This document shows positions 13,943 through 25,633 of a DNA stretch of 33,626 nucleotides, piece by piece. A program made the translations under genes and the position numbers. The DNA comes from Verrucomicrobiota bacterium (lineage in GTDB: Bacteria; Verrucomicrobiota; Verrucomicrobiia; Limisphaerales; JAYTXL01), in the NCBI GenBank assembly GCA_043740915.1, contig JAYUBJ010000549.1, positions 1-33,626 of the forward strand. Reading direction: 5' to 3'. The notes beneath the pieces are model-generated. The model was not told the DNA's origin. It saw only the letters and a list, made by a program, of their open reading frames with translations, and did no database searches. The number at the start of each line of letters is the position of its first letter. Positions within the stretch are counted from its first letter, which is position 1.

Positions 13943-14635
13943 ATGCGTGTGCTCGTAGTCGAAGACGAACCCAAAACGGCGGCGTTCCTGAAAAAGGGGC
14001 TGGCGCAAAACGGGTTCGCGCCGATGGTCAGTGACCGCGGTGATGAGGCGCTGGCACTTGCGAAAACGGAGCGGTTCGACGCCATTATCTTGGATGTTGC
14101 ACTGCCGCAGCTCAGCGGATTTGGCATCCTATCGGCTCTCCGTGCGACAGGTGATCGGACTCCGGTCTTGTTTCTCACGGCCCGTGACGCGGTTGCCGAC
14201 CGGCTGCGCGGCTTTGAACTCGGAGCCGACGATTATCTCGTGAAGCCCTTTTCGTTTTCCGAGTTGCTCGCGCGGCTTCGTTCAATCCTGCGTCGTGTTA
14301 AAGGTGGGGAGACCGACACGGTTATCCGGGTTGCCGATCTTGAACTAGATTTGCCGCGAATGCGGGCGGTGCGCGGAGGCCAGAGGCGCGATCTGACGGC
14401 AAAGGAGTTCCTGTTGCTCGCGCTGCTTGCACGTCGGCAAGGCGAGGTGCTGTCTCGCACAGTCATCGCCGAGCAGGTTTGGGACATGAATTTCGACAGT
14501 GATACCAACGTGGTGGAGGTCGCAATTCGCCGGTTGCGACGGAAAATTGACGACCCTTTCCGGACGAAGCTAATCCACACCGTTCGCGGAGTCGGCTACA
14601 CATTGACCGATTTGGAACATGGCAACCGCATCTAA
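13943..14635 (+). CDS. OmpR-family heavy-metal response regulator (CusR/CopR-like)
   Basis: MRVLVVEDEPKTAAFLKKGL...DAIILDVALPQLSGF...GADDYLVKPFSFSELLARLRSILRR plus a winged-helix C-terminus (IHTVRGVGYTL). ATG 13943 is preferred to 13874. Confidence 0.92.
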   Translation: MRVLVVEDEPKTAAFLKKGLAQNGFAPMVSDRGDEALALAKTERFDAIILDVALPQLSGFGILSALRATGDRTPVLFLTARDAVADRLRGFELGADDYLVKPFSFSELLARLRSILRRVKGGETDTVIRVADLELDLPRMRAVRGGQRRDLTAKEFLLLALLARRQGEVLSRTVIAEQVWDMNFDSDTNVVEVAIRRLRRKIDDPFRTKLIHTVRGVGYTLTDLEHGNRI

Positions 14636-16052
14636 GAAATCGGCCCTTACAAGTCGGCAATGGTCGCTCACAACCCGGCTCACAGGCTTCTATGTCGGAT
14701 CGGTGGCGGTGCTGTTGGCGGCGTGCCTGGCCGGCTTGTATTTATCGCTGCGTGCTCAGATCGAGAAAGAAGACCGCGAATTCCTGCTCGAACAAGGCGC
14801 TTTGTTGCGTGCACTCATTCTTGAGGCACCAGAGCAGGCGCCACGATTGATCGCGCGATTGAAGGCCGGCCCGGGCCAGTCCTCTCTTTCGACCCTCTAC
14901 GTGCGGATCATCGATGCAGACGGCCGGATGAGCGGAGCGACGCCCGGCATCGCCCCGCTACCAATGAGCGAATTTCCGCCGCCGGCCAGACAGCAACCTG
15001 AATTCAAGTCGTGGGAGAACGCGGCCGGCCAGCGCTTCCTGCTGGCGACCTTGCGGATTGATAGCGGTTCGCACGACGGCCTCGTGCTGCAACTCGCCTT
15101 GAACCAATCGTCGGATGTTCAGTTCGGCGTGGTGTTGCGGCGAAACATGGGGCTGGCTTTGGCGGTGGGCGTTGTGCTGGCGGCGCTGATTGGAGCGTGG
15201 GTCGCGCGCTCTGCGCTCCGCCCACTGGAGACGCTGGCGAGCGCGACAACACAAGTGACAGCGCGACTGCTTCGTGCGCATTTTGATACCGCGGGCTGGC
15301 CGGTCGAACTGGCGCAACTGGCGGACGCATTTGGAAAGATGCTGGCACGCCTCGAAGAGTCGTTCGACCGGCTGGCGCAGTTTTCGGCCAACCTGTCGCA
15401 TGAGTTACGGACGCCGATCAACAACCTGCGCGGCGAAACTGAGATTGCCCTCACCCAAGCCAACCTGCCCGAGGAATACCGGGCCGTCCTCGAATCGAGC
15501 CTCGAAGAATTCGACCGTTTCAGCCGGCTGATCGACAACCTGCTGTTCATCGCCCAGGCGGAGAGCACCGAAACTAAGATTAGCGGTGAGGAACTGGACG
15601 TGCGGCGGGAAATCGCGGCAGTGTTGGAGTATTACGATGCCGTTGCCGAAGAGACGGGCGTGCAACTTAGCCAGCACGGGGAAGCGCGGTTGCGCGGTGA
15701 CACGGTATTATTTCGCCGGTTGCTCAGCAATTTGCTCTCGAATGCCCTGCGGCACACGCCACGCGGCGGAATGGTCCAAATTACGGCCGAGACGCTTTCC
15801 GACGGCGGCCTGGAGATTTGCGTGCGTGACACGGGTTCGGGCATCCCCGCCGAGTATTTGTCCCGCATCTACGACCGATTTTATCGAGTGGAGGTGACAC
15901 TGTACACCTCGGAGATAAAACGCGGCTTTGGTCTCGGATTGTCGATTGTCAAATCGATCATGGCGATGCATCATGGGACGGTCTCTGTTGAAAGCATGGT
16001 GGGGAAGGGAACGGTGGTGCGCCTCGTGTTCCCGGCAAACCGCGCAATATAG
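14619..16052 (+). CDS. Heavy-metal sensor histidine kinase (CusS/CopS-like)
   Basis: Two TM segments flank a periplasmic domain of about 120 aa. HAMP region, H-box FSANLSHELRTPINNL, N-box LLSNLLSNALRHTP, and G-boxes RDTGSGIP and GFGLGLSIV. It overlaps the regulator gene by 17 nt. Confidence 0.92.
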   Translation: MATASKKSALTSRQWSLTTRLTGFYVGSVAVLLAACLAGLYLSLRAQIEKEDREFLLEQGALLRALILEAPEQAPRLIARLKAGPGQSSLSTLYVRIIDADGRMSGATPGIAPLPMSEFPPPARQQPEFKSWENAAGQRFLLATLRIDSGSHDGLVLQLALNQSSDVQFGVVLRRNMGLALAVGVVLAALIGAWVARSALRPLETLASATTQVTARLLRAHFDTAGWPVELAQLADAFGKMLARLEESFDRLAQFSANLSHELRTPINNLRGETEIALTQANLPEEYRAVLESSLEEFDRFSRLIDNLLFIAQAESTETKISGEELDVRREIAAVLEYYDAVAEETGVQLSQHGEARLRGDTVLFRRLLSNLLSNALRHTPRGGMVQITAETLSDGGLEICVRDTGSGIPAEYLSRIYDRFYRVEVTLYTSEIKRGFGLGLSIVKSIMAMHHGTVSVESMVGKGTVVRLVFPANRAI

Positions 16053-16134
16053 TACCGGCCGCGGCAAGCTCAGATAACAAAATGGTCATCTGGCGGTCAG
16101 CACCGTGTCAGCCGCTCGGTGCTAGGCTGATGAG

Positions 16135-24300: not shown

Positions 24301-24437
24301 AGCCTGGCCGCGAGATTGAAGGTCCGATGGCCATTGTCATTCTCGGCGGACTGCTGACCTCGACTGCGCTCAATCTGCTCATCTTGCCGACACTGGTGTT
24401 GAGGTTTGGGCGGTTCCAGGCAAACGAGGAATCGTGA
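21345..24437 (+). CDS. CusA/CzcA-family heavy-metal efflux RND transporter (copy 2)
   Basis: 1030 aa. MLDHIVRFSLRFRGLVI..., TM4 motif LAIAVGVVVDDAIIDVEN, RND 12-TM topology. Confidence 0.95.
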   Translation: MLDHIVRFSLRFRGLVIALSLALAGYGIYAYTQAKYDVFPEFAPPMVNIQAEAPGLAPEQVEQLVALPVENAINGVEGIEALRSQSIQGLGLIVVTFQSGTDIYRARQAIAERLTTVTGQLPQGVPPPVMTPLTSSTSTILIVGLTSEKRSLMELRTLADWTLKQRLLSVPGVAKVSVFGGEAKEFQVQVRPDRLVAYDLTLDDVLAAAGRATAVRGAGFIENDSQRIVLQSEGQSLTAEQLAQSVVRQSKGAIVRLGDVGYVVEAPEPPAGAAAIMGETGVSLVINSQFGANTLEVTRDVEHALDELRPSLDAQDVALHANLFRPANFIETATHNVKSSLLIGAGLVVIVLTLFLFELRTAAISCSAIPLSLLGAIIVLQRFGINLNTMTLGGLAIAVGVVVDDAIIDVENILRRLRENRHRVQPRSDFQVVFDASIEVRSAVVYATFAVILVFFPILTMSGVQGRLFSPLGLAFIYATLASLGVALTVTPALCLVFLGGRHFKRDEPPVVHWLKARYVRLLQRVETNARAVLWTAGIVTALGLATLPFIGGGFLPELKEGHFIVHMSAVPGTSLHESLAIGRQVTEGLRKLPFVRSVAQQVGRAELADDTWGTHYSEFNVDLKPLSGEEAEQAQFQIRQALAKFPGVNFAVKTFLTERMEETLSGHTASVVVNLFGPDLDALDATGKDIARLLNTIPGAADVQVQSPPGTPQLVIRLKPAALALWGFDAVSVLDGVRTAYQGTTVGQVYEGNRVFNTAVILDPASRGNITQVAELPMKSPSGAHIPLGQLADIYQASGRYVVLHEGARRMQAITCNAAGRDASALVEEARRRIQAEIKLPPGTYLAFTGTAAGQAASRRDLLVHSALAGLGTVLLLSIVMGHWRNLLLVLANLPFALVGGVLAVFGSGGMLSLGALVGFVTLFGITLRNSIMMISHYEHLVAAEGQTWGAETALRGASERLSPILMTALVTGLGLLPLALGSGEPGREIEGPMAIVILGGLLTSTALNLLILPTLVLRFGRFQANEES

Positions 24438-25633
24438 CTTCGACGGGTCCATCGTCCAAGGCGCTCTGGTTAAACCGAACCGTCCTTGGCATTGGGCTGG
24501 CTTCACTGTTCAGCGATTGGTCGCATGAGATCGCGACGACGGCGATGCCGGCTTTTCTCGCCACGATGGGCGTCGCGGCGATGTGGGTTGGATTGATTGA
24601 GGGCGTGTCAGACGGCCTGTCGAGTTTTGCCAAGCTTGCTTCGGGTCACTGGACCGACCGTCTTGTCCGGCGTAAGCCGGTCGCGGTGGCCGGTTACGTG
24701 ATTACAGCCCTAGGGACGGCGGCGTTCGGTTTGGCGACGAGTGCCTGGCATGTGCTTTTTGCGCGCGCAGGGGCATGGCTCGGTCGCGGCGTGCGCACCC
24801 CAATACGGAAAGCCATGCTCGCTGCCTCGGTGACTCCCGACACTTATGGGCGTGCCTTTGGTTTCGAGCGGATGATGGACACACTGGGAGCGATTGTCGG
24901 ACCAGCGTCGGCCTACCTTTTGTTGCGGTTGCACGGAAATCACTACCCGACGCTCTTTGCTTGGACACTTGTGCCCGGCTTCCTCGCCGTCGCTTGCATC
25001 GTTTTTCTCGTCAAGGAGGAGACGCGAACCAAGGTCGCCTCCATTTCGTTTCGCGAGGGACTGCGACAGCTTCCCGGTCCCTACCGGAAATTTCTGGTCG
25101 CCGTTGGGCTGTTCGGTGCCGGCGACTTCGCCCACACCTTGCTCATTTTGCTCGCGACACAAAAACTCACGCCCGAACTGGGTGCAGGGAAGGCCGCTGC
25201 CGCCGCAGTGGCGCTTTATGTGCTGCATAATGTCTTCTATGCTTCATTCGCGTTCATCGCTGGCTGGCTGGCTGATCGCATGCCGAAGAAGATTCTTCTG
25301 TCCGCCGGCTACTTTCTCGCTGCGGCCATGGCTGTGTCTGTCATGATCTTTCCCTTGGGCGTGTGGTCCCTCGGTTTGGTCTTCATCTTAGGGGGTGTTT
25401 ATGTGGCGATTGAAGAGACGCTCGAAGACTCACTTTGTGCTGAGTTGGTGGACGTTCACCAGCATGGCATGGCTTTCGGCGTGCTCGCCACGGTGAACGG
25501 CGCGGGCGATTTCTTTTCGAGCATCGTGGTTGGGGTGCTCTGGACCGCCTTCGGCACAACCGTCGCTTTCGGCTACACGGCGGTGCTCTCGGTGGCCGGG
25601 GCGTTGCTAGTGCTCCGGCTGAAACGTTCGTAG
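24434..25633 (+). CDS. MFS transporter, translationally coupled to RND pump 2
   Basis: GTGA overlap with the RND stop. About 12 hydrophobic segments. MFS loop motif-like GHWTDRLVRRKP between TM2 and TM3. Confidence 0.8.
   Translation: MTSTGPSSKALWLNRTVLGIGLASLFSDWSHEIATTAMPAFLATMGVAAMWVGLIEGVSDGLSSFAKLASGHWTDRLVRRKPVAVAGYVITALGTAAFGLATSAWHVLFARAGAWLGRGVRTPIRKAMLAASVTPDTYGRAFGFERMMDTLGAIVGPASAYLLLRLHGNHYPTLFAWTLVPGFLAVACIVFLVKEETRTKVASISFREGLRQLPGPYRKFLVAVGLFGAGDFAHTLLILLATQKLTPELGAGKAAAAAVALYVLHNVFYASFAFIAGWLADRMPKKILLSAGYFLAAAMAVSVMIFPLGVWSLGLVFILGGVYVAIEETLEDSLCAELVDVHQHGMAFGVLATVNGAGDFFSSIVVGVLWTAFGTTVAFGYTAVLSVAGALLVLRLKRS

Follow-up and report, generated by a model that had tools for sequence, protein, structure and literature searches.

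The stretch of DNA considered here, called the window throughout, is the whole 33,626-nucleotide (33.6-kb) contig JAYUBJ010000549.1 from a Verrucomicrobiota bacterium (assembly GCA_043740915.1). Our subject is a run of eight genes on its forward strand, in which a two-component regulatory system is followed by two glycosyltransferase genes of lipid A modification and by an efflux pump. The first gene encodes an OmpR-type response regulator of the CopR/CusR/CzcR subfamily (13943-14635; TIGR01387, 301 bits against a cutoff of 279), and the second a sensor histidine kinase of the heavy-metal sensor family (14619-16052; TIGR01386, 365 bits, cutoff 293) with two transmembrane segments, a periplasmic domain, and HAMP, HisKA and HATPase domains. 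A putative regulator-dependent promoter (16075-16128, forward strand) then precedes an orthologue of arnT, a GT-C enzyme of the type that transfers 4-amino-4-deoxy-L-arabinose (Ara4N) to lipid A (16135-17895), whose PMT, PMT_2 and Arnt_C domains (PF02366, PF13231 and PF18583) all score above their cutoffs. An orthologue of arnC follows (17898-18860), a GT2 enzyme of the type that transfers formylated Ara4N (Ara4FN) to undecaprenyl phosphate (Und-P), with the ArnC-type motif and ligands. The remaining genes encode the outer-membrane factor (OMF) of the pump, a lipoprotein with two OEP-domain matches (18857-20275); a divergent periplasmic adaptor (membrane fusion protein, MFP) with a weak TIGR01730 match of 49 bits (20280-21335); a resistance-nodulation-division (RND) permease of the CusA/CzcA, or heavy-metal efflux (HME), family (21345-24437; TIGR00914, 711 bits, cutoff 701); and a major facilitator superfamily (MFS) transporter with an MFS_1 match (24434-25633). 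An earlier note on this DNA had described these eight co-oriented genes, and our analysis confirms every one of them at its coordinates.

The genes are tightly packed. The kinase start overlaps the regulator gene by 17 nt, an 82-bp gap separates kinase from arnT, and a 2-nt gap separates arnT from arnC; the arnC stop and OMF start share an ATGA overlap, gaps of 4 and 9 nt follow the OMF and MFP genes, and the RND stop and MFS start share a GTGA overlap. Direct reading of the sequence agrees with the earlier note at all seven junctions. The arnT gene starts at GTG 16135 or, alternatively, at TTG 16168, and the NCBI call gives a protein of 575 aa. Inside the run from arnT to the MFS gene no terminator signal rises above chance, and five of its six genes either overlap a neighbour or lie within 9 nt of it. 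A scan for consensus sigma-70 promoters and terminators returned matches no more frequent than in shuffled sequence. Past the MFS gene a weak terminator-like hairpin followed by a T6 run can be read from the forward strand (25647-25704), although the predicted fold of this region is no better than that of shuffled sequence, and the right-hand boundary of the cluster is set by a fluoride riboswitch (25736-25819) that begins the next regulatory unit. The genes from arnT to the MFS transporter (16135-25633) apparently form one six-gene operon under one sensor-controlled promoter; read-through from the sensor genes into this operon is also possible.

The 82-bp gap contains the box TAACA-N5-GTCAT (16075-16089), GTCAG repeats at 11-bp spacing and a -10-like TAGGCT (16123-16128). 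The consensus for CopR of Pseudomonas aeruginosa has been given as CTGACAn5GTAAT (PMC11195947), and the box upstream of arnT matches it as a predicted operator. A version of the pattern with a 6-nt spacer found no match, the correct spacer being 5. For comparison we surveyed about 160 loci with ArnT relatives (the L-numbered loci below), collected by tblastn with the proteins of the window and the annotated Arn proteins (arnBCADTEF) of Pantoea. A block of the form (C)TGACA-N5-GTAAT ... GTCAG ... TA(G/A)GCT stands upstream of arnT in L084, L087, L091, L095, L108 and L128, which are exactly the loci with a close homologue of the two-component system (kinase at least 40% identical) directly upstream of arnT. 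Of the remaining arnT loci, roughly 146, just one shows the pattern, apparently by chance, and loci with weaker kinase homologues (30-33% identity; L100, L133, L140/141) have no box.

What lies behind this promoter block varies. Complete or 5'-complete arn operons follow the same sensor pair and block in L091, L095 and L128, while in L169 the block after the kinase gene leads only into OMF, MFP and RND genes, with an RND 83% identical to that of the window and no arn genes. A similar box, in a block that aligns with that of the window, precedes the pump in L171, likewise a pump-only module, and L172 is another pump-only locus in which the sensor pair is divergently oriented. Identity to the regulator of the window is 96% in L084, 71-72% for the regulators of complete arn operons and 63% for the pump-only module L169. 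We propose from these arrangements that regulator, kinase and promoter make up a portable cassette that can drive arn genes, a pump or, as would be the case in the window, both. The earlier note had tied the arn pair to a Cus/Cop-type sensor; the family match and the conserved CopR-type operator bear this out, but the link is not special to the fusion with a pump, as L091, L095 and L128 demonstrate. In L095 a second CopR-type box (about 17960-17979, minus strand) lies just downstream of the sensor-controlled arn operon, between divergent genes of the LptF/G family and for a TonB-dependent receptor, and the regulon may extend to lipopolysaccharide transport.

The assignment of the two glycosyltransferases to the ArnT and ArnC lineages, rather than to generic GT-C and GT2 enzymes, stands on phylogeny, on synteny with complete arn operons and on conserved catalytic residues. 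The sole PDB match of ArnT is the enzyme of Cupriavidus metallidurans (5EZM, 225 bits). Residues D51/E52, E80/K81, R265 and Y340 of the window protein align by motif with D55/E56, E84/K85, R270 and Y345 of that enzyme, for which active-site and lipid-carrier roles have been described (PMC7801869). ArnC scores 285 bits against solved ArnC (9bhc and 8vxh aligned), 143 against GtrB and 64 against DPMS. It keeps the DADLQN motif and, at an alignment offset of +4, all named ligands of Salmonella ArnC (D48, N77, R128, R131, R137, S141, R205 and S210), together with the Met that replaces D157 of GtrB; the roles of these residues in binding UDP and Und-P, and the Met at the GtrB D157 position, are described for the Salmonella enzyme (PMC12690121). 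Both proteins miss the NCBIfam equivalog cutoffs (ArnT 226 of 567 bits for NF009784, ArnC 312 of 529 for NF007986). Because the copies in the complete operon of L086 fail as well (ArnT 216, ArnC 334), we take these scores to reflect distance from the enteric sequences and not a different function.

The nearest relatives of the GT-C protein are in Verrucomicrobiota (Opitutaceae and Akkermansiaceae). The earlier note regarded the placement of arnT before arnC as a reversal of arnBCADTEF, and this point does not hold: where at least 3.5 kb of downstream sequence is available, 77 of 106 loci run arnT-arnB-(arnC-arnA-arnD), so that arnT first is the standard order in Verrucomicrobiota and several other phyla. 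Relative to complete-operon copies, the ArnC of the window is 69-80% and its ArnT 45-63% identical. Neighbour-joining trees place both island proteins as one clade within the complete-operon copies, sister to L086 and L008, on branches that are not unusually long; the pair falls inside the ArnT and ArnC lineages, as the note's view of it requires. Sequence and synteny show that arnT and arnC descend from a Verrucomicrobial arnT-B-C-A-D operon.

What remains of that operon is two genes. The earlier note reported arnA, arnB, arnD, arnE and arnF to be absent, and tblastn of the window with Pantoea queries (E<=1e-8, at least 40% query coverage) likewise finds no match to any of them. The arrangement of arnT, arnC and pump recurs in L084/L085 (ArnT 74-75%, ArnC 88-89% and RND 81% identical to the window), and its arnT-arnC part recurs in L087, with an ArnT 73% identical to that of the window. 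The window, L084 and L087 share one and the same 2-nt junction between arnT and arnC, an indication that arnB was deleted once, in a common ancestor. In the island ancestor, we hypothesize, arnB would have been deleted and arnA and arnD replaced by a tripartite HME-type RND pump. The lineages have since diverged considerably: between the window and L084, synonymous divergence (dS) is 0.68-0.93 for arnT, arnC and the pump genes, with ratios of nonsynonymous to synonymous divergence (dN/dS) of 0.10-0.21 (arnT 0.19, arnC 0.10). The island copies keep 49 of 50 near-invariant columns in ArnT and 82 of 85 in ArnC, near-invariance meaning conservation of at least 95% among 82-83 copies from complete operons. 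The few altered columns are mostly conservative (F/L, V/I, V/L), with one R-to-H change in L084 only. Three diverged lineages hold the truncated arnT-arnC form under purifying selection.

Low dN/dS and the retention of conserved columns therefore argue both against decay and against a change of specificity, the two explanations that an incomplete pathway most readily invites. According to the first, the arnT-arnC pair would be a non-functional leftover of a broken arn operon that by chance lies between a regulator and a pump. The incomplete pathway and the gene fragments nearby (a remnant of enolase in the window; BacA, Gate and ATPase fragments in L084) would fit such a history. Both reading frames, however, are intact in three lineages at dS 0.7-0.9 and dN/dS 0.10-0.19, conserved residues are retained, translational coupling to the pump is preserved, and in L168 an independent fusion has joined an unrelated ArnT-like gene to this pump family. 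We consider a leftover very improbable.

The second explanation supposes that the pair transfers a common sugar (GlcNAc, GalNAc or Glc) onto undecaprenyl phosphate and from there to lipid A or another envelope acceptor, with no need for arnA, arnB or arnD, by analogy with LgmAB of Bordetella, FlmF2/FlmK of Francisella or the gtrMAB loci of Cupriavidus. It would account for the maintenance by selection of a pair that has no arnA, arnB or arnD beside it in either the window or L084, a self-sufficient two-gene module would suit a mobile element, and gtrMAB loci do exist in metal islands (PMC2864759). The proteins themselves argue otherwise. ArnC, which is up to 80% identical to the arnC product of complete operons, retains the ArnC-specific features listed above, including DADLQN, the Met at the GtrB D157 position and 82 of 85 columns, and prefers ArnC over GtrB by 285 bits to 143; ArnT retains 49 of 50 columns, and neither branch is accelerated. 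Nor is there a deacetylase or a GtrA-like flippase nearby. A changed specificity is, in our estimate, distinctly unlikely, though less so than decay, and we take the pair to have kept its role in Ara4N transfer.

The pump that now follows arnC belongs with metal exporters by similarity, its RND scoring 448 bits against ZneA, 393 against CusA and at most 263 against multidrug pumps. Charge-relay signatures in the fourth transmembrane segment (TM4) read DFGX3DGAX3VEN in CzcA and AIGX3DAAX3IEN in CusA. The corresponding motif of the window RND, AVGVVVDDAIIDVEN, keeps the D and EN, has Ala at the first position as in CusA and is otherwise intermediate. An attempt to infer the metal from CusA Met573 and similar positions gave an ambiguous result. 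Directly upstream of the RND gene lie the genes for the OEP lipoprotein, with a lipobox-type signal peptide ending LAGC, and for the 351-aa adaptor, and a gene of 351-352 aa occupies the MFP position in all related pump loci. The MFS transporter is not conserved in the sister module, the MFS protein of L084 being only 27% identical. The pump of L171, a close relative, adjoins genes for P-type ATPases, a Cu,Zn-superoxide dismutase and a CsoR-type repressor. L168 (9956-14763) has an RND gene whose product is 88% identical to that of the window and whose stop codon overlaps a gene of the ArnT family (37% identical to the window's; Arnt_C 93 bits); this contig also carries genes for a type IV secretion system coupling protein and antirestriction, and has no arnC. 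We interpret L168 as a second, independent coupling of this pump family to an ArnT-type enzyme, which hints that the partnership between pump and ArnT has been selected repeatedly.

The window is a mosaic. At the arnC/OMF junction the GC content rises abruptly from 0.59-0.60 to 0.63-0.66, and positions 12750-16013 are 90-93% identical to L084 at the nucleotide level against 76-78% for the remainder. The regulator genes of the window and L084 differ at a dS of 0.09, their arnT genes at about 0.9, and the breakpoint lies at the gap between kinase and arnT (12750-16074 compared with L084 4967-9874). So sharp a shift in divergence indicates recent recombination, in which the regulator block was probably swapped between island lineages. 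We read the window as a truncated arn derivative and a pump, two alternative cargoes of one regulator-promoter cassette that appear to have been fused; the GC step and the breakpoint are consistent with two fused cargoes and later recombination. The left border of the block common to the window and L084 is a 5'-truncated remnant of enolase, contained in an open reading frame (ORF) at 13515-13877 on the forward strand and matching only positions 222-287 of the 296 in Enolase_C. It lies between the regulator gene and the gene for a ZntA-type P-type ATPase and is kept in L084 (5590-6153), where the ATPase gene is itself a fragment beside fragments of BacA and Gate. Enolase is the classic target of fluoride, and the remnant may, by analogy, be a relic of an enolase copy from a fluoride island.

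One gene of the sister loci is absent from the window. At this breakpoint between kinase gene and arnT, L084 (8569-9702) and L087 (1020-2153) carry a gene for a 377-aa protein that is secreted-looking and outer-membrane-barrel-like, with a CxxCH motif, a C-terminal Phe and its own CopR-type box. We considered whether it could be a cryptic arnB or arnD and rejected this, as it has no Pfam match and no similarity to ArnB.

The surroundings are those of a mobile island rich in metal resistance genes. At the left end, 2-1519 encodes the helicase part of a TraA/TraI-type conjugative relaxase that runs off the contig, which suggests that the window belongs in its entirety to a plasmid or integrative conjugative element. 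The mobile setting postulated by the earlier note finds support in this relaxase fragment and in a related pump module on a conjugative element. Between the relaxase and the regulator lie an FTR1/EfeU-like permease (1995-3170), a second and strong CzcCBA-type pump (3645-9139; TIGR00914 1215 bits, TM4 motif GIGMMADGAVVMVEN), two ORFs with no family match (9764-10219 and 10216-11265) and the ZntA-type ATPase (11277-13283).

To the right, a fluoride-export operon (25736-28449) comes immediately after the metal module: the fluoride riboswitch (RF01734, 34.9 bits) stands just ahead of crcB, which is followed by a DUF190 gene and by a gene that fuses a CLC-type channel to DUF190. The fluoride genes are followed (28712-32703) by genes for a phosphodiesterase of the alkaline phosphatase superfamily, a PAP2/vanadium-haloperoxidase-like protein and a 291-aa membrane protein. 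L173 likewise has a PAP2 gene (6661-7326) downstream of a pump closely related to that of the window, and a 53%-identical phosphodiesterase is encoded near the sensor-controlled complete arn operon of L095 (20452-21684). The phosphodiesterase and PAP2 genes may be further genes for remodelling envelope phosphates.

Taken as a whole, the locus is in our view best explained as a CopRS/CusRS-family pair (13943-16052) that controls an operon of arnT, arnC, OMF, MFP, RND and MFS genes from a CopR-box promoter, such that a pump and the two membrane steps of Ara4N modification are co-induced; we give this explanation a probability of about 0.6. Hypothetically, a signal, most likely a periplasmic metal cation, would lead to phosphorylation of the regulator, which would then activate the box promoter and induce the pump together with arnT and arnC. 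ArnC would load Ara4FN onto undecaprenyl phosphate and ArnT would move Ara4N to lipid A. ArnA and ArnB, which synthesize UDP-Ara4FN, and the deformylase ArnD would be supplied by the host's own chromosomal arn operon. Almost all sampled relatives have such an operon, and function of the pair probably depends on host arnA, arnB and arnD. The outcome would be a less anionic lipid A that binds fewer cations, alongside active export of cations. In a bolder version, which we offer tentatively and rate at somewhat below even odds, ArnT and ArnC are a "plug-in" on conjugative DNA, fused to a metal pump and using the recipient's UDP-Ara4FN, that would confer efflux and inducible reduction of lipid A charge and possibly tolerance of polymyxin and cationic peptides.

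Several observations weigh against co-induction of pump and Ara4N steps by metal. The box of the window departs from the CopR consensus at two positions; no His, Met or Cys is conserved in the periplasmic domain of the kinase across six relatives; the same kinase family includes the non-metal sensor HprS, which is among the closest solved kinase cores; the RND barely clears the HME family cutoff (711 bits against 701); and its TM4 motif is not an exact copy of either the CzcA or the CusA signature. Because the periplasmic domain has no conserved metal ligands, we infer a metal signal from family membership and context, and the earlier note went too far in treating a "metal sensor" as an established property when what supports the term is membership in the family.

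The observations on kinase and RND lend some credit to a different account, in which the signal is an envelope stress other than metal (cationic peptides, acidity or oxidants, for example), the pump exports a non-metal substrate and "heavy-metal" is a family label. In addition to the sensor domain and the borderline RND with its atypical TM4 motif, it is favored by L095 and L128, where this two-component system controls complete arn operons that have no metal genes in their vicinity. On the other hand, regulator and kinase both pass curated cutoffs for heavy-metal two-component systems, the operator is CopR-type (PMC11195947), the RND resembles ZneA and CusA much more than it does multidrug pumps, determinants of the Zn/Cd/Pb/Co type are abundant on the island, and the pump relative in L171 sits beside metal genes. 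We judge a non-metal signal unlikely on balance, if the least unlikely of the alternatives weighed here, and retain the view that metal most likely induces the pump and the two Ara4N steps together.

Other difficulties concern supply and distribution. The 20-kb sister contig, like the window, has no arnA, arnB or arnD, and our explanation assumes a supply of UDP-Ara4FN; tblastn of the window with Pantoea ArnE and ArnF found no flippase of that type. The arrangement is also rare, being found in three lineages that are all metagenomic, with none cultured. The window, two exact Logan copies, L084/L085 and L087 are the only known examples of this island type. A scan of JGI metagenomes for close relatives of the island ArnT gave none above 60% identity, and a search of plasmids for near-identical DNA gave only short matches in arnC and the RND gene. 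The best matches to ArnT in a protein search of plasmids, at most 36% identical and on Ralstonia megaplasmids, are uninformative.

In enteric bacteria the arn genes are controlled by PmrAB, which responds to Fe3+ and Al3+. The window resembles the arnBCADTEF (pmrHFIJKLM)/PmrAB system of Salmonella and E. coli in its homologous ArnT and ArnC with conserved catalytic residues and in its OmpR-family two-component system, which would, as PmrAB does in response to cations, induce a lowering of lipid A charge. It differs in having arnT and arnC only, in that order and without arnA, arnB, arnD, arnE or arnF, in a regulator of the CopR/CusR type with a CopR box, and in a predicted operon shared with an RND pump on a mobile island. 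The Verrucomicrobial arnT-B-C-A-D operons (L086, L095, L128 and L091) are its direct evolutionary source and share its gene order, some of them also its promoter block and regulator (71-72% identity), whereas the window has lost arnB, arnA and arnD and gained OMF, MFP, RND and MFS genes behind arnC. With the pump-only module L169 it shares a pump 83% identical, a homologous sensor pair and the same promoter block, but L169 and L172 have no arn genes between promoter and pump.

Outside this phylum the closest precedents are in Cupriavidus metallidurans, where metal islands of plasmid pMOL30 and of strain BS1 carry metal-induced gtrMAB or ArnT loci (PMC2864759, PMC7019866), and the authors suggested envelope modification under metal stress (PMC2864759, PMC11647585, PMC7019866). 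There, as in the window, GT-C and polyprenyl-phosphate GT2 enzymes lie among czc, pbr, cop and sil genes on mobile DNA. Those loci, compared here by description and not by sequence, are however separate gtr-type loci with a GtrA flippase, for which no translational coupling to an RND pump or shared promoter is reported. In Pseudomonas, ColRS ties Zn/Cu sensing to arnB, eptA and czcR (PMC13524251), and the related regulators of the ColRS/CzcRS networks share GTAAT-type operators (PMC13524251, PMC11195947); the regulon there is dispersed, in contrast to the single operon of the window. The earlier note's suggestion that the arrangement had not been described needs narrowing: metal islands with gtrMAB or ArnT and the same hypothesis are in print, but we did not find a description of the exact combination, namely arnT-arnC orthologues without the soluble steps, translational coupling to an HME-RND pump, a shared CopR-box promoter and a mobile carrier. 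The window represents a new wiring of a known idea and not a new kind of system.

If our explanation is correct, efflux and the remodelling of outer-membrane charge can be packed into one mobile, co-regulated unit, for which the two membrane steps of Ara4N modification suffice. It would also explain why glycosyltransferases recur in metal-resistance islands, a question left open for Cupriavidus, and would point to an environmental route by which metals co-select tolerance of cationic peptides and polymyxin. Should ArnT and ArnC indeed act as a plug-in, they would be a mobile Ara4N counterpart to the mcr-type genes. For the Verrucomicrobia themselves, the regulator-promoter cassette offers a direct handle on the signal that controls Ara4N modification.

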